From: a virus
Taxonomy: Duplodnaviria > Caudoviricetes
Length of the DNA: 64,000 nt
IMG/VR virus record: IMGVR_UViG_3300047469_000103
Location: 192,001-256,000 of that record
Strand: one strand, 5' to 3'
The notes under the pieces are model-generated. The model did not search any database. It was not told the origin of the DNA and was given only the letters and a program-made list of their open reading frames with translations. Position numbers and translations under genes: made by a program. The stretch's first letter is position 1; every line of letters starts with the position of its first letter. Shown piece after piece: positions 53,211 to 63,139 of the stretch.

Positions 53211-54647
53211 TTAACCGAACGAAGCTTTTTTGTTACCGGACTTCTTCGGAACAGCGCCACCTTTCGGTTTAGAGGCTGCTTTCGGAGCGGCCTTTGGAGC
53301 GGCCTTTGGAGCGGCTGCTTTTTTCACAGCGGCTTTAGTACCGGCTTTACCCGGTGCAGTTTTACCGGCTGGGGCTTTCAACGAAGTTTTGCTACCGTTG
53401 GAAGTTTTCTTGGCCGGTGCGGCTGCTTCGGTTTTTGGCTTGGCTGGACGGCCACGCTTTTTCGGAGCGGCTGCGGCTGGTGCGGCTTCGGTTTTTGGCT
53501 TGGCTGGACGGCCACGCTTTTTAGCCGGTGCTGCTGGTGCTGCGTCAGCTTTTGGTTTTGCAGGACGACCGCGTTTTTTGGCTGGAGCGGCTGGAGCAGC
53601 AGCTTCAGTTTTTGGTTTCGCTGGACGACCACGTTTTTTCGCTACTGGAGCCGGTGCAGCAGCTTCAGTTTTTGGCTTGGCCGGACGACCGCGCTTTTTA
53701 GCGGCTGGAGCAGCAGCCGGGGCGGCAGCTTCAGTTTTTGGTTTTGCAGGACGACCGCGTTTTTTCGCAACTGGGGCCGGAGCGGCATCAGCTTTTGGTT
53801 TTGCAGGGCGACCGCGTTTTTTCGCTACTGGTGCAACTGGGGCAGCATCAGCTTTTGGCTTGGCTGGACGGCCACGCTTTTTGGCAGGTGCAGCTTCAGC
53901 GGCTGGGGCAGCAGCAGGGACTTTACGAGCTTTTTTCACAGCACCGCCGGTTTTGCCGAAGTGCTTAGTCGAAATAGCCGAAGTTTCTTTTGCAGCAGCT
54001 ACTTTCGCAGCAGCGGCTTTCTTCGGATCAATCGTTTTCAGACGCTTGCCTTTCTTGGAGATTGGCTTGGCGCTGAAATTGCCGATGAAGTCTTTCAGGC
54101 GGAAAACACCACGCTTGGCAGAAGCAGCTTTGATTTTGCCGAGAGTTTTCTGGTGAGTTTTCACCGCTTTCATACGCTCGCCAGCCAGAGTCTTACGCTC
54201 GGAAGCGTAACGTTGCTTTTCAGCAGCGCGCATTTTCATACGAACGGCTGGGGCAACCTTGGCGGTACGGATTTTCATCAGTGCCTTTTTGTGGGCGCTG
54301 GAAACGGCTTGCGATTTTGCTTTCAGTTGGCCGCGAACGGATTTCTGAGCAGTAACAGCCTGACGTTTCTGTTCGGAAGCGTGCTTACCAGCGTGGCGCA
54401 TTTTGCGGTTCTTTTTGTAGGCCGCAACAGCTTTTTTCGCTTCAGCTTCGGTAGCACCGTGACGCATGGCGCGAAGGAATACCACGTTTTCCAAGTGCGC
54501 CAGTTTTTCACCGTGCGACATGGTTTTGTAGCGGTTCTTCGACGCCTTGTTCAGCTTCGATTTGTTTTTGTTGCGGTATTGTTTGGCCTTTTTGGCGGCG
54601 ATGCGCGCCTCGGGGCTTTTGTCCTTACGGACGACTTTCGTGACCAT
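53211..54647 (-). CDS. Histone H1-like Lys/Ala/Pro-rich protein with 8 AT-hooks
   Basis: 8 copies of KKRGRPAKPK separated by Ala/Pro linkers, and a PKAA-rich tail. Confidence 0.85.
   Translation of the reverse strand: MVTKVVRKDKSPEARIAAKKAKQYRNKNKSKLNKASKNRYKTMSHGEKLAHLENVVFLRAMRHGATEAEAKKAVAAYKKNRKMRHAGKHASEQKRQAVTAQKSVRGQLKAKSQAVSSAHKKALMKIRTAKVAPAVRMKMRAAEKQRYASERKTLAGERMKAVKTHQKTLGKIKAASAKRGVFRLKDFIGNFSAKPISKKGKRLKTIDPKKAAAAKVAAAKETSAISTKHFGKTGGAVKKARKVPAAAPAAEAAPAKKRGRPAKPKADAAPVAPVAKKRGRPAKPKADAAPAPVAKKRGRPAKPKTEAAAPAAAPAAKKRGRPAKPKTEAAAPAPVAKKRGRPAKPKTEAAAPAAPAKKRGRPAKPKADAAPAAPAKKRGRPAKPKTEAAPAAAAPKKRGRPAKPKTEAAAPAKKTSNGSKTSLKAPAGKTAPGKAGTKAAVKKAAAPKAAPKAAPKAASKPKGGAVPKKSGNKKASFG
53430..53885 (-). 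repeat. Tandem repeats of about 57-66 bp encoding AT-hook units
   Basis: Repeated ggacggccacgcttttt / ggacgaccgcgttttt on the plus strand with synonymous variation. Coordinates approximate. Confidence 0.9.
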
Positions 54648-54743: not shown

Positions 54744-55793
54744 TCACGAGGCCGAAATGCCCAGCCGGGCACAAGCCTTTTTAACTTCTTTTCGACCGGC
54801 TTTAATCATTTCTTTATCAAAGCCTTCTGCCACCATGAACTCTTTTAAACCAAACATTGGATCAATATCAATGTTTTCCACTTTAATTGATTCATCTTCG
54901 GAAACATTCGATTTTTTCGCACCAGCTTTATGAATGCCACCGGTAATGTTTGGGTATTGAATCATCAGGTCGGCTGGAATAGGAACGTCTTCAGCTACGT
55001 GCAGCTTGTAACGAACGTTATCTGCATAAACCAGTTTCTTGTAATCATTGAGGTCATTAATCTCAACGTTCTGCAAAGTAAAGTTTGGTTTGTTTTCAAC
55101 GAACTTATGTTGGAATGCAACCCGGTTTCCATCCATGCTGGCTTTAAAATGAATAAAGCCTTTTGGCAATGCTTCACCAAAGTTTTTCTGGAATGGATTA
55201 CCGCAATAAACGGCCCGCTTTGCTTTCATGAATTGGTATTGGTGAATATGCCCGGAAATAGTGAAATCGTTTTTGTGGGTTTCCAATTCATGTTTGGTTT
55301 TCAATGAACGACCATTGTCACCAATTGCGCCGCTGTATTCAACGTGCGCAAAGTTTAATGCACCCTGTTTAGTGGACAGGGTTTTCAGGCATGGATACGG
55401 CAGGAAATTCACCGGTACGTTTTCGATTACAACGCGTTCCGGTTTCAGGATGATTTTCAGACGCTTAAACGCTTTCGACGTTGCCAGCTTGTGCATGAAA
55501 TTCATCGACGTATTTTCGATATCACCGAAGTCATGGTTGCCCATGATGTAATACGTGTAAAGGTTTTCATCGTGACGCAAAAACAAATCGTACAGCTTGC
55601 CGTAGGTATCCCAATCGAGGTCAGGTGTATCAGACAAATCGCCGGGAATAAATACGTGTTTAATACCGTTGCTATACGCGTACTGATAAATCTTTTCCAT
55701 TTCCGCCAAGATGCGATCATTTGCATCGGGGAAATGTTTGTTCAAACCGTCAAGGTGAACGTCAGAAAATGCAATGCCTTCAAGATCAGCCAC
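54744..55793 (-). CDS. Mre11/SbcD-like metallophosphoesterase nuclease
   Basis: SDVH, PGDLSD, MGNHD, FAH, SGHIH, YCGNP.Q..FGE motifs. Confidence 0.93.
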   Translation of the reverse strand: MADLEGIAFSDVHLDGLNKHFPDANDRILAEMEKIYQYAYSNGIKHVFIPGDLSDTPDLDWDTYGKLYDLFLRHDENLYTYYIMGNHDFGDIENTSMNFMHKLATSKAFKRLKIILKPERVVIENVPVNFLPYPCLKTLSTKQGALNFAHVEYSGAIGDNGRSLKTKHELETHKNDFTISGHIHQYQFMKAKRAVYCGNPFQKNFGEALPKGFIHFKASMDGNRVAFQHKFVENKPNFTLQNVEINDLNDYKKLVYADNVRYKLHVAEDVPIPADLMIQYPNITGGIHKAGAKKSNVSEDESIKVENIDIDPMFGLKEFMVAEGFDKEMIKAGRKEVKKACARLGISAS

Positions 55794-57281: not shown

Positions 57282-57752
57282 TTAATACGAATGTGTGAAA
57301 TTCAGCGTGTAACGTTTGCCGTGAACACGAGCGAGACGCTGGCTACGGAATTCGATTTCGACGTTCGCAATACCCGTGTGATAAATCAGGGTAGCGCCGC
57401 GCTTGTGGGAGCGAACCGAAAAACGTTTGTAATCTGGCGGATTGTTAATTGCGCCGTACCAGTTCTGCATGAATTTGTGTGCGGCGTTCGATTGCTCGAA
57501 ATAGCTGTGTGACGAAACCGGTTTTGATGGTTTACGCTCGTGGAAAATCGAACCTGTTTCTTTGTCCGCATTCAGCGTAACGTTCATCATCTGCGAAGGG
57601 AATACGCCGGGGTGACGGGCGTTAACTTCGAACAGCGGCATGCCGTCAAATTCAATCGTCCATTTCTGCGCTGTTTCTTTTGGTGCAACGTTGCCAATCC
57701 ACACGTGACCGGTAACGTCCATCAAATTCGCTGGTGAACTTTGCTCTACCAT
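57282..57752 (-). CDS. Paralogue A of the [FY]RSxRxA[RK] C-terminal family
   Basis: SHKRGATLIY...EFRSQRLARV. Confidence 0.7.
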   Translation of the reverse strand: MVEQSSPANLMDVTGHVWIGNVAPKETAQKWTIEFDGMPLFEVNARHPGVFPSQMMNVTLNADKETGSIFHERKPSKPVSSHSYFEQSNAAHKFMQNWYGAINNPPDYKRFSVRSHKRGATLIYHTGIANVEIEFRSQRLARVHGKRYTLNFTHSY

Positions 57753-58204
57753 CCCCGTCTTCCTATGCCGTGTTTTTTCATATCCACGCGGGCTTCACGC
57801 GCAGAACGATATTCGTACCAATAAGTCGTGCTGGTATTGTCTTTCGGGTTACGTTCCCAAACATAAACCATAACTTTTCCGCGACGATGCACGAGCGAGT
57901 AAATGTATTTCGTTTGGTATTTCGGATTCGGTTGATACACGTCGCAGATAATTGAAATTCCGGTCAACGTGCCTATGCTTCCGGTCAACAGTGGCGCAGT
58001 GTCAACGGGAACCGGTTCGACTGTTTCAGCAGCGCCCGTACCGTAATGCGCTTCACATGGCCGCGCTGGTAATGACCACGGATAATCCATCGGCATTGTG
58101 TAGATGCCACCGCCTTTTTTCATGCGCGGTAATTCGTTACGCTGTTCTGTACAGCGCACGTTTTCCAATTCACTTAAAACCCATCCTTTCATCCCGTCCA
58201 TCAT
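57746..58204 (-). CDS. Paralogue B of the [FY]RSxRxA[RK] C-terminal family
   Basis: VHRRGKVMVY...EYRSAREARV. Start trimmed (ATGA overlap). Confidence 0.7.
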   Translation of the reverse strand: MMDGMKGWVLSELENVRCTEQRNELPRMKKGGGIYTMPMDYPWSLPARPCEAHYGTGAAETVEPVPVDTAPLLTGSIGTLTGISIICDVYQPNPKYQTKYIYSLVHRRGKVMVYVWERNPKDNTSTTYWYEYRSAREARVDMKKHGIGRRGW

Positions 58205-58560
58205 GCCTGTGCCTCTACCGGTTTTGGTTTCCACAACTTGGCAAACTTCAGAACGTTCGGCACGTTGTCAGATTCAACCGGGAGGATAACCAGACAGGAA
58301 GGCTGTGCATCGCAAATTGTGTTCTCGTGGCCTTCGTGGCACACCAGAGTTTCACGAATTTTATCAAACTCGCGACGGTTCACACGCAGCACAACTTTAC
58401 GGAAAGAATCGTTCAACCATTTGTGATAGCAAAGGAACTCTGCGTCTGGCCGAAGTGGCGATGCGAATCTTATATGTGCCGTCAGAATCGAATGCGCAAC
58501 CAGCGTCGGCACCATGTAGTCGGGAGCGTCGTCGAGGACTGCGATGTACATCTTTTTCAT
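58201..58560 (-). CDS. Peptidyl-tRNA hydrolase type 2 (Pth2)-like protein
   Basis: KMYIAV..D.P......VAHS......W....FRKVVLRV..........E.T.....CLVILP follows the Pth2 fold pattern. Confidence 0.65.
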   Translation of the reverse strand: MKKMYIAVLDDAPDYMVPTLVAHSILTAHIRFASPLRPDAEFLCYHKWLNDSFRKVVLRVNRREFDKIRETLVCHEGHENTICDAQPSCLVILPVESDNVPNVLKFAKLWKPKPVEAQA

Positions 58561-58871
58561 TTCTTCGCCCTTCTATTTTTGATCCAGACCTTCGCGGTAC
58601 GCAGGCTACGGAATTTCAGAACGCTACCCTTTGGCAGCAACAGGAAAACAATCGCGCCCCACTTCGACGAATACACAGACGCGTAATCCCACGCAAGTTT
58701 TTTCCATTCGTCTTCGGGAACCTGCATCGCGTCAATGCGCGCAACAGCACGGCGATTGCGACGGTATTCAGTTTCGAGTTTTGCTTGAGGCAGACGGGTT
58801 TGGTACAACTTCAAAAGCGTCATGCCATCATCGCGAACCATGCTACGCAAATCCCAATTCTGAGTCGTCAT
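58557..58871 (-). CDS. Paralogue C of the [FY]RSxRxA[RK] C-terminal family
   Basis: SSKWGAIVF...KFRSLRTAKVW. Start trimmed (ATGA overlap). Confidence 0.7.
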   Translation of the reverse strand: MTTQNWDLRSMVRDDGMTLLKLYQTRLPQAKLETEYRRNRRAVARIDAMQVPEDEWKKLAWDYASVYSSKWGAIVFLLLPKGSVLKFRSLRTAKVWIKNRRAKK

Positions 58872-59200
58872 TTTATAGATGCCCTGAATTCTTTTACCCA
58901 CATTTTCGCATAGCGACGGGAACGGAATTTCGTAACCTGTCTGATCGGGTAGATCGTGTGGACGTTAACGCCGCGACGGTGCGAGCTAACGAGGGCTACG
59001 CGCTTCAGCGAATCCATCATTTGCTTCTGTTTCACGCGTGCGAATTCTACAAAGCGTGCATTCGATACAGCCATTTGTGCAGCGTAAGACGACGTGTCTA
59101 CTGCACCGTTTAAAAACTCTTCAGACAGGCCCAGCGCTGCCAGCTTCTGTCGGTTCATTTCTTCCAGAGTCGGATTGTCCACTTGCGTGTTCCTTTTCAT
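58868..59200 (-). CDS. Paralogue D of the [FY]RSxRxA[RK] C-terminal family
   Basis: SHRRGVNVHTI...KFRSRRYAKMW. Start is ATG 59200 or TTG 59209. Confidence 0.7.
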   Translation of the reverse strand: MKRNTQVDNPTLEEMNRQKLAALGLSEEFLNGAVDTSSYAAQMAVSNARFVEFARVKQKQMMDSLKRVALVSSHRRGVNVHTIYPIRQVTKFRSRRYAKMWVKEFRASIK

Positions 59201-59432
59201 GGCGGGCAATCGCCTCTGTAATAAAATTCAGAGCGTAGCAATTTGCGCGCACGTAATTGTAACCAGCGTAACCGTCGGAGAATACAACCAGAGCCGGGTA
59301 CGATTTCGGGTAGCCTTTGATATCTGGTTTGCTGTCGCTGTTCCAGAATTCTTTGGCCGCTTGTTTGAAGCCTGCTTGCGTCCGCACGATGTACAGGCAC
59401 GGCGTAAGTTTTTCGCGATTATCTGTAATCAT
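59121..59432 (-). CDS. Hypothetical protein
   Basis: 103 aa ORF with an ATGA overlap. Confidence 0.7.
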   Translation of the reverse strand: MITDNREKLTPCLYIVRTQAGFKQAAKEFWNSDSKPDIKGYPKSYPALVVFSDGYAGYNYVRANCYALNFITEAIARHEKEHASGQSDSGRNEPTEAGSAGPV

Positions 59433-60655: not shown

Positions 60656-60839
60656 GGCGCATCCGGGCTTCGTTAATGGCACGATTACTATCGACGATGG
60701 TTTCCATCATGGCCGTAGGACTCATGCGCCAGCGTGGAATAACTACGTCGGTTTGAATTTTCACGCCACCGGGCAACGGCAGTTCCGCCGCTACTCGCCA
60801 GCCGATTTTCTCTTCGTTACATTTCCATTGAATTTTCAT
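60633..60839 (-). CDS. Hypothetical protein
   Basis: 68 aa ORF with an ATGA overlap onto the Rad50 stop. Confidence 0.65.
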   Translation of the reverse strand: MKIQWKCNEEKIGWRVAAELPLPGGVKIQTDVVIPRWRMSPTAMMETIVDSNRAINEARMRHEQFCKH

Positions 60840-63139
60840 TGTTCAAGCTTCACTCTTGAAACGCCTTTGTGTTTCTCGACAGTCACGTAACTGCAATCGC
60901 TGTGAACGTGTTTGCCCTTTTGTGTAATCAGGAAAACATGCGGCACAAGGGTACGCAGGAACGGAATGTAACGATCAGCAAAAAGCGTGATTGTTGTTTC
61001 GTCCATGTGTGCATCTGGTTCGTCGAGGATCGCGATGTTAACCCGTCGATCAGCCTTCGCCATAATCACGCAAGCGAGGAAGTGCAACAGACGGAAACTA
61101 TCGGATTCTGCGCCGGACAATTCACGAACGTCGGATACGTTGCCGTTGCCCCGGTCAACGATGATATGCACGCCATCGTCTTTTGCCACTACGTTGAACT
61201 TGAATGGCTCAGCGAAAATCAAGTTGGCAAATCGGTTGTAATGTTGCTCCAACTGATAAACGATTTGGTGCATCGCGTGCAGCTTCAAGCCCTTGTTGCT
61301 GTAGGCTTTCGACATTGCTTTGTACAACTGCAATTTCTTTGTCAGCGGTTCCAGCTTTTCAATCTCACCGCTGATTTGATCGCGTTGTTTCGACAGCAGT
61401 TTGAATTCAGCGCGACGGCTACCGTGCTTGACGGAAATCTCATACGCTTTTTCGTATTTCTTTTCGACCTTCTTCAGCTTGGCGGCAGTCTCTTCTAGCT
61501 CGGCGGTCAAGCCTTTGTCTTCTGGCACTTCTTCGAATTCAGCAAGGCGCTCTTTCAGCGCTTTGATTTCATCGAGGATTTCAACCTGTGCTTCGATTTG
61601 TTCCAGCGTGAGTTTGACAGAAACTTTAGGCGCTTTCGGCTTCTTCAGTTCGGACATTTGCTCAGTGATTTCGTCAAAGCGTGCAGCGTTTTCCAGCTTG
61701 TCGGTCAGCGTCTCAAGTTCTTCGTTAGACTTCTTCAGAGTCTTTTTCAGCGCGTAATAATCACGCTCGTTAAACTTGAGTTTTTCGATGATCGCTTTGT
61801 TGGTCGTGCGCGTCTCACGGATTTCGAAAGCGTGAATCATCGACAGCAGCAAACCTTTACGCTTCTTCGCAGCCTTCAGACTTTTCTCAAGGTCTTTCAG
61901 GTTGATTTTCTGCATACAGGTCGGGCAGTTGCCGTCGTCGTGTTCGTGCAGCAAGTCAGAAAGTTTCAGCGTGGTTTTCACCATGCCTAATTCTTCCTTC
62001 ATTTCTTCCATCGGATCAAGCTTTTGCTTATTGCAACGACTCAAGAAGCTGCGCAGTTCTGGCTCAGTGTGATCGTCGAGGTTTTCCAGTTCCCGCACGG
62101 CTGCGTCGAATTCATCGCGGACTTTTGTCTGCCGCTTGTATTCAACTTCCATCGTTTCAATTTCAGCACGCAATTCTTTGACGCGTTTCTTCAGCTTTTT
62201 ACCGCCGCCGCAATCGCCAAGTTCTTCCAGCTTTTTCGTTAGGCGCTTGGCAGTTTTGGTATAGGTGTCCAACTCTTCGTGATACGACTCGGCTGCCTCA
62301 AGTTCTTTGTACATCGCCTTCAATTCTGGCTTTGTATATTTCGCTTTCTTTTGCAGCTTCGCCAGCTTCGACTTTGCAGACGCATAAAATTCCACTTGCT
62401 TCATGAGCGAGCGGAGTTCCTGTGTGCGGGTCTGCAATTTGGTAACTTTCTTGGCCTGAGATTTCACAACCTCGGTGGCTTCGTCGAGTTCCTTTTGGCG
62501 GTGTCGATTCCAACCATTTTTATTCAGCGCGTCATTCGTGTTAAGCAGGTTTTTGCTATGCACGTCGGCTTTGTTCTGCGCGATCTTGACCGCATCAACT
62601 TGCTTGTCGAAATACTTGCGCAGAATATCGAATTGATCCAGTCGCCACACGGCAGTGATATACGACATACGCGTTCGCGCCGTGCCATACATAAAGTCGA
62701 GTTTTTTCTGCGACTGGAGGTGAACGTAGGAATACCATTCATCCGAGGTCAGCGGAATAATCTTTTCGATCCATTCGCGCTGTGCAGCTTGACCACGGAC
62801 TTCCAAATCGGTGCCATCGCGGATGATTTTGTAGCCGCTTCCGCTTTGGCGAATCGTCCATTTGTGCCCGAGGTTTTCCACGTCGATTTCGATATGGGAA
62901 CCTTTCGAGTGAATCCGGTTTTTCTTGCGAGTATCTGCCAACGGCATTTGTTCAAAACGCACGTTGGGCAGCATGCCAAACAAAACAGATTTACCGGCGC
63001 CGTTGTTGGTCTTCTTTGAAATCAGAGAGTCACGGTTGTGGCCGCTTACAACGGTGAAGCCACAGTTATTCGTGAAATCAAATGCACCTTCTTTGTACGA
63101 TACAACGCCATTGAAACGACTGCCGGTAATATCAATCAT
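60836..63139 (-). CDS. Rad50/SbcC-like ABC ATPase
   Basis: NGAGKS Walker A, Q-loop VHLQ, coiled coil with CPTC zinc hook, LSGAE signature, ILDEP Walker B. Confidence 0.95.
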   Translation of the reverse strand: MIDITGSRFNGVVSYKEGAFDFTNNCGFTVVSGHNRDSLISKKTNNGAGKSVLFGMLPNVRFEQMPLADTRKKNRIHSKGSHIEIDVENLGHKWTIRQSGSGYKIIRDGTDLEVRGQAAQREWIEKIIPLTSDEWYSYVHLQSQKKLDFMYGTARTRMSYITAVWRLDQFDILRKYFDKQVDAVKIAQNKADVHSKNLLNTNDALNKNGWNRHRQKELDEATEVVKSQAKKVTKLQTRTQELRSLMKQVEFYASAKSKLAKLQKKAKYTKPELKAMYKELEAAESYHEELDTYTKTAKRLTKKLEELGDCGGGKKLKKRVKELRAEIETMEVEYKRQTKVRDEFDAAVRELENLDDHTEPELRSFLSRCNKQKLDPMEEMKEELGMVKTTLKLSDLLHEHDDGNCPTCMQKINLKDLEKSLKAAKKRKGLLLSMIHAFEIRETRTTNKAIIEKLKFNERDYYALKKTLKKSNEELETLTDKLENAARFDEITEQMSELKKPKAPKVSVKLTLEQIEAQVEILDEIKALKERLAEFEEVPEDKGLTAELEETAAKLKKVEKKYEKAYEISVKHGSRRAEFKLLSKQRDQISGEIEKLEPLTKKLQLYKAMSKAYSNKGLKLHAMHQIVYQLEQHYNRFANLIFAEPFKFNVVAKDDGVHIIVDRGNGNVSDVRELSGAESDSFRLLHFLACVIMAKADRRVNIAILDEPDAHMDETTITLFADRYIPFLRTLVPHVFLITQKGKHVHSDCSYVTVEKHKGVSRVKLEQ

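Follow-up and report, generated by a model that had tools for sequence, protein, structure and literature searches.

The window examined here is a 64,000-nucleotide stretch of viral DNA (record IMGVR_UViG_3300047469_000103, positions 192,001-256,000); all coordinates are window positions, except those given for NC_022096.1 and for loci with an L number. At 57282-59209, its minus strand carries five close-set genes, transcribed in the order D, C, a PTH2-like gene, B and A. Four of them, A to D, end in a common, strongly basic module of ~45 residues with the pattern SH[KR][KR]G ... [FY]RSxRxA[KR]xxx[KR]. A sequence-only reading of the stretch had described four open reading frames (ORFs) ending in such a module. 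They lie on the minus strand where it placed them, with the strings it quoted at each C-terminus; its coordinates would extend to 59209 for D if a TTG start is used. The genes and modules are listed below (aa, amino acids; HMM, hidden Markov model).

57282..57752, minus strand: gene A, 156 aa; N-terminal part of ~108 aa with net charge -3, then the basic C-terminal module
57285..57428, minus strand: module of A, the last ~48 aa, net charge +8 (KRFSVRSHKRG...EFRSQRLARVHGKRY...); HMM domain, residues 119-169 of the stop-to-stop frame
57746..58234, minus strand: gene B, 162 aa from GTG; module with a loop insertion
57749..57910, minus strand: module of B (KYIYSLVHRRGKVMVYVWERNPKDNTSTTYWYEYRSAREARVDMKKH...); HMM domain
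58201..58560, minus strand: intervening PTH2-like gene, 119 aa, phrog_5822; outside the module family
58557..58901, minus strand: gene C, 114 aa from GTG; basic N-terminal part and module
58560..58697, minus strand: module of C (YASVYSSKWGAIVFLLLPKGSVLKFRSLRTAKVWIKNRRAKK); HMM domain
58868..59209, minus strand: gene D, 113 aa from TTG; helical N-terminal part with an LG[IL]SEEFLxG motif, and module
58871..59011, minus strand: module of D (LKRVALVSSHRRGVNVHTIYPIRQVTKFRSRRYAKMWVKEFRASIK); net charge +12

The shared module and the genes that carry it

A search of the six-frame translation of the window with [FY]RS.R.A[RK] gave four matches, all in the ORFs of A to D, where 200 shuffles averaged 0.075 matches and never gave more than 1. 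In a leave-one-out test, an HMM built from three modules was searched against 1759 six-frame ORFs. It recovered A (E 1.2e-7), C (5.1e-8) and D (9e-8), and B weakly (0.27) because of its loop insertion, which adds 9-11 residues between strands 2 and 3. BLASTP linked C to D (2e-7) and A to B (0.013). The deeper family alignments, compared by hhalign, joined the A-type to the C/D-type at 94.5% (E 7.6e-8), the B-type to the A-type at 88.9% (E 2.4e-6), which brings B into the family, and the B-type to the C/D-type at 52.8% (E 1.4e-4). In all three comparisons the aligned region was the module alone. A profile of the D-type N-terminal region did not recover A, B or C; it does recover the D-type proteins of other phages, including HRDY3 XDJ15183. 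An 18-sequence HMM found no module copies in the window beyond those of A to D. At the level of sequence comparison, then, the module is a true homologous unit set on N-terminal regions of undetectable similarity, and the sequence-only reading was right on both counts, the unrelated N-termini within what these tools can detect.

On six independent metagenomic contigs the gene callers give the same genes, with A at 156 aa on all six. The true start of B is probably an internal Met giving 148-152 aa, and calls on other contigs give 152 aa. For C the most likely start is the ATG at 58871 (104 aa), and for D the ATG at 59200, the GTG at 59182 or the ATG at 59158 (96-110 aa) is more likely than the TTG at 59209. 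The stop of D and the probable ATG of C overlap as ATGA (58871), the PTH2-like start overlaps the C stop by 4 bases, and the A start overlaps the B stop by 7 bases. Because of these overlaps the set looks translationally coupled. Scans of 54-64 kb for sigma-70 promoters and terminators gave no excess over shuffles, and the Lu11 middle/late promoter box (TAACTGTAAATAG) was not found in the same interval.

Selection was measured as the ratio of nonsynonymous to synonymous divergence (dN/dS) against the orthologues at metagenomic locus L004, which are 62-95% identical. The ratio is below 0.4 in every part of all four genes. The module of A has a value of 0.07, against 0.19 for the N-terminal part of the gene, and the module of D has 0.085. 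The modules of A and D are nearly invariant between orthologues, and their N-terminal parts have diverged (0.19-0.39). P0005, an orthologue of A, is 73% identical with an almost invariant module, and P0006, an orthologue of C with 104 aa, is 95% identical. A to D are thus real genes under purifying selection. Between paralogues, the modules are 36-50% identical at the DNA level. The similarity is therefore old and maintained at the protein level, and recent duplication or gene conversion is ruled out. Synonymous divergence (pS) from L004 is much lower in the module than in the N-terminal part in A (0.23 vs 0.60) and in C (0.09 vs 0.25), which might stem from mosaic recombination among related phages or from additional constraint on the RNA or DNA itself.

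That the shared motif is a chance or compositional artefact, or that the ORFs are not genes, has practically no probability left: the module is short and basic, and B on its own was weak among the four sequences, but the motif counts, the leave-one-out and hhalign results, the dN/dS of orthologues on independent contigs and the 24 family clusters described below refute it.

A narrow family in giant phages

How widely does the module occur? We searched 1.84 billion cluster representatives exhaustively with a profile and obtained 10 matches, nine of them real. The tenth, P0011 (588 aa), was rejected: it is a repeat protein that matches the hairpin part only and lacks FRSxRxAK. A word-seeded profile search of 5.8 billion clusters gave 24 proteins of 106-207 aa each, metagenomic or from giant phages, devoid of Pfam domains and named 'hypothetical protein' at most. 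The sequence-only reading had asked for a profile and a database search of this kind; these results are their outcome. None of the ~24 clusters is fused to a known domain at the thresholds used.

The relatives sort into the four types found in the window. The D-type is the most widespread (P0008, P0012, P0013, P0015, P0019, P0026 and HRDY3 XDJ15183). The B-type has the most members; the 14 that were aligned share LLTGxIGT...KYxY...YWYE[YF]RSAR. A-type relatives are P0005, P0010, HRDY3 XDJ15185 and a 133-aa gene of locus L015, and the C-type has P0006 and one further member, P0020. Four copies occur in the window and in L004, which has all four genes. L015 has three, a D-type, a B-type and an A-type in the same order as in the window. 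There are two in HRDY3 (D- and A-types) and two each in L013 and L016 (a D-type and a divergent 92-aa copy). No module copies were found in Lu11. The order D...B...A is thus kept across diverged phages; together with the age of the paralogues, this speaks against the idea of a set under active shuffling.

In the window, L004, L013, L015, L016 and HRDY3, the module genes lie in the interval between sbcC and sbcD. The copies in phage PaBG differ: gp050 and gp051 are tandem divergent copies outside that interval that adjoin a DprA-like recombination-mediator gene (NC_022096.1 27524-28358; L019 3525-4359, minus strand). They read RGVVAHVLY...ARSARHAARLVRKL and ...RRFRKRRIAKKYMRQ, and the PaBG paper (PMC7412058) does not mention them. 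In these distant relatives the module is internal rather than terminal, and in HRDY3 XDJ15183 it likewise stands away from the extreme C-terminus. An always C-terminal position, as first proposed, therefore holds for A to D and not for the family.

No named family accounts for the module, as the sequence-only reading had supposed. We compared the four proteins and their neighbours with Pfam, PHROGs, NCBIfam and PADLOC, and for A to D obtained only noise. Pfam searches of 39 family members at E up to 10 gave scattered single matches (BVU_2266-like, XkdW, Phage_C, PH_fung_RdRP, DUF2026) and none in common. A search of PDB sequences with the module profiles also gave noise only (uS8, an Affimer, a designed protein, TetR). 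A to D are ancient paralogues in a small family confined to giant phages. The sequence family of the module is new and of narrow distribution, and the small fold on which it is built is a common one.

The window itself belongs to a Lu11/HRDY3/PaBG-like giant Pseudomonas-type phage, as its surrounding genes indicate: a SbcC-like ATPase, a SbcD-like nuclease, LysM proteins and a 250-aa phrog_18876 protein that is 48% identical to Lu11 gp116 and HRDY3 XDJ15181 and 39% to PaBG gp299. None of 50,697 phage records matched the 56.5-60.5 kb region by megablast. The gene content of the sbcC-sbcD stretch is different in each relative examined, and the module genes are embedded among the clamp loader, sbcC and sbcD genes and co-oriented with them. 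Other features of this setting are given below.

60836-63139: SbcC-like ATPase, neighbour of the cassette
54744-55793: SbcD-like nuclease, neighbour of the cassette
L001 7234-7860, L002 8168-8803 and L015 1901-2560: PTH2-like/LysM fusions
L013 8616-8876, L015 1222-1506 and L016 2022-2309: HTH_37 gene

Several genes nearby merit separate mention. Directly upstream of D, a 103-aa gene (59121-59432, minus strand) overlaps the 5' end of D by 38-80 bases. A 123-aa orthologue that is 85% identical to it has a longer acidic tail, and the one hint of its function is a weak match to NCBIfam SigX (E 0.004), which falls far short of the cut-off. Directly downstream of sbcD, a 478-aa basic protein (53211-54647, minus strand) has about eight KKRGRPAKPK AT-hook-like repeats and is a second candidate DNA-binding protein near the cassette. 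In three related phages a small HTH_37 (Cro/C1-type) gene lies among the module genes; the window has none there.

The sequence-only reading tied the family to the PTH2-like gene and to an EF-Tu mimic, and suggested that it may be aimed at ribosomes or nucleic acid. The product of the PTH2-like gene matches phrog_5822 at E 6.5e-56 and Pfam PTH2 at E 0.0066, below the cut-off. It recurs at 67-74% identity in ~196 records of Otagovirus-like Pseudomonas phages, Salmonella phages and others, and is far more conserved than its neighbours. It stands alone in the window. In Lu11 (gp114, annotated 'putative endolysin'), HRDY3 (XDJ15186) and the metagenomic L015, the PTH2-like domain is fused to a C-terminal LysM domain, and in those relatives that have an A-type gene, this gene directly precedes the fusion. 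It is odd for a PTH2-like fold to be joined to a domain that binds peptidoglycan. The fusions weaken a translation theme and leave a ribosome-directed cassette unsupported; nothing at the locus points to ribosomes.

Predicted fold and conserved surface

AlphaFold2 was run on D with a 15-row family alignment and gave a mean predicted local distance difference test score (pLDDT) of 81.7, with 91-94 in the module. The model has a helix at residues 22-51, strands at 55-60, 63-68 and 74-78, and a final helix at 81-94. For A, AlphaFold2 placed strands at 110-116, 119-125 and 130-135 and a helix at 138-151 (pLDDT 75-90), and the C-terminus of the model runs helix, three strands, helix, matching the order in D. 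In an alignment of 18 members all insertions and deletions fall inside the two predicted loops, which fits a common fold. The predicted module is thus an antiparallel sheet of three strands with an amphipathic helix after it; a further helix usually precedes the sheet.

On this model the conserved residues have plausible places. SH[KR][KR]G would form the turn between strands 1 and 2, and [FY]RSxRxA[KR]xxx[KR] the junction of strand 3 and the helix, with the F ending strand 3. The Ser is predicted to cap the helix, the Ala and the W/V/F after it to pack on the sheet, and the Arg/Lys residues at i, i+3 and i+7 to form a basic stripe along the exposed face of the helix. Invariant residues are confined to the hairpin turn and the strand 3/helix junction, and the strand positions are variable or hydrophobic in the alignments (AIVFLLL in C). 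The net charge of the module is +8 to +12, with an isoelectric point of 10.2-12.0, and the N-terminal parts of A and B have a net charge of -3.

Candidate functions of the module

It is tempting to read such a basic surface as a binding site, and we infer, with belief and doubt evenly balanced, that the module binds nucleic acid through its hairpin-plus-helix surface. The most likely ligand is DNA, since the genes lie within a replication/recombination block, among those for the clamp loader, sbcC and sbcD, and run in the same direction as these. The basic turn and helix face would contact the nucleic acid, and the paralogues would share this one binding domain but differ in the N-terminal region that stands before it, which is helical in D and larger and acidic in A and B. 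These regions may serve in oligomerisation or in contacts with different partners.

Several points weigh against this reading. The model of A is poor over its N-terminal 90 residues, with pLDDT below 50 outside the module. Since D-type rows stood in the alignment from which its module was modelled, the comparison of predicted folds, which the sequence-only reading had proposed along with Foldseek, returned one element order from two models that are not independent. The conserved residues lie off the sheet face with which AP2 and integrase domains read DNA, so any binding would differ in mode from theirs. Sequence searches tied the module to no family that binds DNA or RNA, and the dsrm model gave nothing in HRDY3. 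Finally, an acidic protein would be just as plausible a docking partner for the basic surface.

The last point leads to the main alternative, a weaker candidate that still deserves serious attention: the module would be a protein-docking or targeting domain that brings four N-terminal heads to one partner, for example an acidic host or phage protein or the ribosome, much as in the modular-effector reading. The module is indeed all that the four proteins have in common, their N-terminal regions being undetectably related. The modules of A and D are more conserved than their N-terminal parts, and the genes sit in a variable accessory stretch of the kind typical of host-interaction genes. However, the N-terminal parts, which the sequence-only reading took for variable cargo, are only ~50-110 aa long, and comparison with Pfam, PHROGs, NCBIfam and PADLOC gave no sign of an enzyme or toxin in them. 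The ~24 clusters show no fusion to a known domain, the old paralogues keep a fixed order with no sign of shuffling, and the translation context is weak, given the LysM fusions of the PTH2-like neighbour in relatives.

Could the module be a highly diverged true member of the AP2/integrase arm-binding superfamily? We consider this rather unlikely. On this account it might be a relic of the DNA-binding domain of a homing endonuclease or integrase, now found in free-standing small proteins. It would fit the order of elements, beta-beta-beta-alpha, and the F-x-[ST]-x-x-x-A pattern found where strand 3 meets the helix; AP2 and integrase N-terminal domains are among the nearest shapes, with the lowest root-mean-square deviations (rmsd). 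In addition, an HNH endonuclease is housed in the sbcC-sbcD interval of PaBG, and an HNH-domain protein appears in the BFVD list. One close parallel is with the N-terminal arm-type domains of integrases (lambda Int/Tn916 Int class), which also have a three-stranded antiparallel sheet and then a helix in ~45 residues, with an F-x-[ST]-basic-basic-x-A style strand/helix junction. Also near is the AP2/ERF domain (PfSIP2 AP2, PDB 6sy0; AP2 of phage HNH homing endonucleases). A shape search of the ESM Atlas returned four tyrosine-integrase rows and hypothetical proteins of 51-57 aa. The integrase N-terminal domains superpose at an rmsd of 1.4-1.9 Å over 43 residues, with a template modelling (TM) score by query of 0.37-0.40, and these matches are short and without statistical support; the TM score by target is 0.12-0.13 because only a small part of each integrase is matched.

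Foldseek against the PDB found nothing significant (best E 0.49), and no structural match was significant or stood out from halves of PH domains and other units of beta-beta-beta-alpha design. In BFVD, uncharacterised phage proteins (38-60 aa, DUF2188-like) have the same mini-fold and share its shape alone. The best BFVD match is an uncharacterised 120-aa PaBG protein, 24% identical over 42 columns at rmsd 2.0. Sequence gives no link: hmmscan against Pfam-A at E up to 10 found no AP2 (PF00847) match in the four proteins and 39 members, and no integrase arm-type family (Int_N/Arm-DNA-bind) was listed for any member at that threshold. AP2 and integrase arm-binding domains read DNA through the sheet face, where Arg and Trp of AP2 contact the bases. 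The module alignments show no such conserved Arg/Trp on the exposed sheet face; the conserved basic residues are on the hairpin turn and helix face. The module of A to D is C-terminal and never on a recombinase: no tyrosine recombinase is attached in the ~24 clusters, and a long fused form was absent from the exhaustive profile search. We therefore model the module as a common beta-beta-beta-alpha unit whose nearest named neighbours are the AP2 and integrase arm-binding domains, and make no claim of membership, since there is no sequence signal and the conserved residues differ from those of AP2. The sequence-only reading had named these two folds, and what stands of that is the resemblance.

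Other searches gave candidates that did not hold. A feature search of the ESM Atlas with D returned portal-protein fragments (0.94; 158-172 shared features), and with A it returned DUF6711 (0.95; 182 shared). Both were rejected as unsupported; Pfam has no match in A, and the DUF6711 model had no match up to E 10 in the three phages HRDY3, Lu11 and PaBG. With B the search returned nothing, and a shape search with the low-confidence A model was uninformative.

A double-stranded RNA-binding domain (dsRBD)-like design, in which helix, three strands and helix form an RNA-binding unit, seems to us quite improbable. The models of D and A do have this alpha-beta-beta-beta-alpha order. The dsRBDs are most conserved in two places, the turn that joins strands 1 and 2 and the N-terminus of the last helix. 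The module is conserved at the same two places, where S-x-R-x-A-K could stand for the dsRBD KKxAK motif (S-basic-x-A-K is the shared pattern) and the hairpin His/Arg for dsRBD loop 2. Foldseek gave one weak row, RDE-4 2ltr (E 1.6, rmsd 3.7 over 44), while no dsRBD is among the best 50 structural matches. The dsrm model (PF00035) has no match in the family proteins nor in the HRDY3 genome, which carries two module copies. In addition, the first helix of the module has 20-30 residues, far longer than that of dsRBDs, and its packing is uncertain (predicted template modelling score, pTM, 0.52).

A small chance goes to the module being a hitherto undescribed nucleic-acid- or replisome-targeting adaptor that would bring three or four different small N-terminal effector heads to one site of giant-phage DNA replication or recombination: one address with several payloads inside the sbcCD block, possibly used in host takeover or counter-defence.

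Giant phages have hundreds of genes annotated without function. Here, four anonymous ORFs and ~20 metagenomic relatives become one defined domain family. It has a profile and a secondary-structure model of good confidence, and its members share a conserved surface and a fixed place in the genome. Because the family is narrow and belongs to one phage lineage, its value is chiefly as annotation and as an experimental starting point. If the module does bind DNA or RNA, it would be a new sequence family among the small beta-sheet-plus-helix nucleic-acid binders, and it would give a handle on the role of the variable sbcC-sbcD block.

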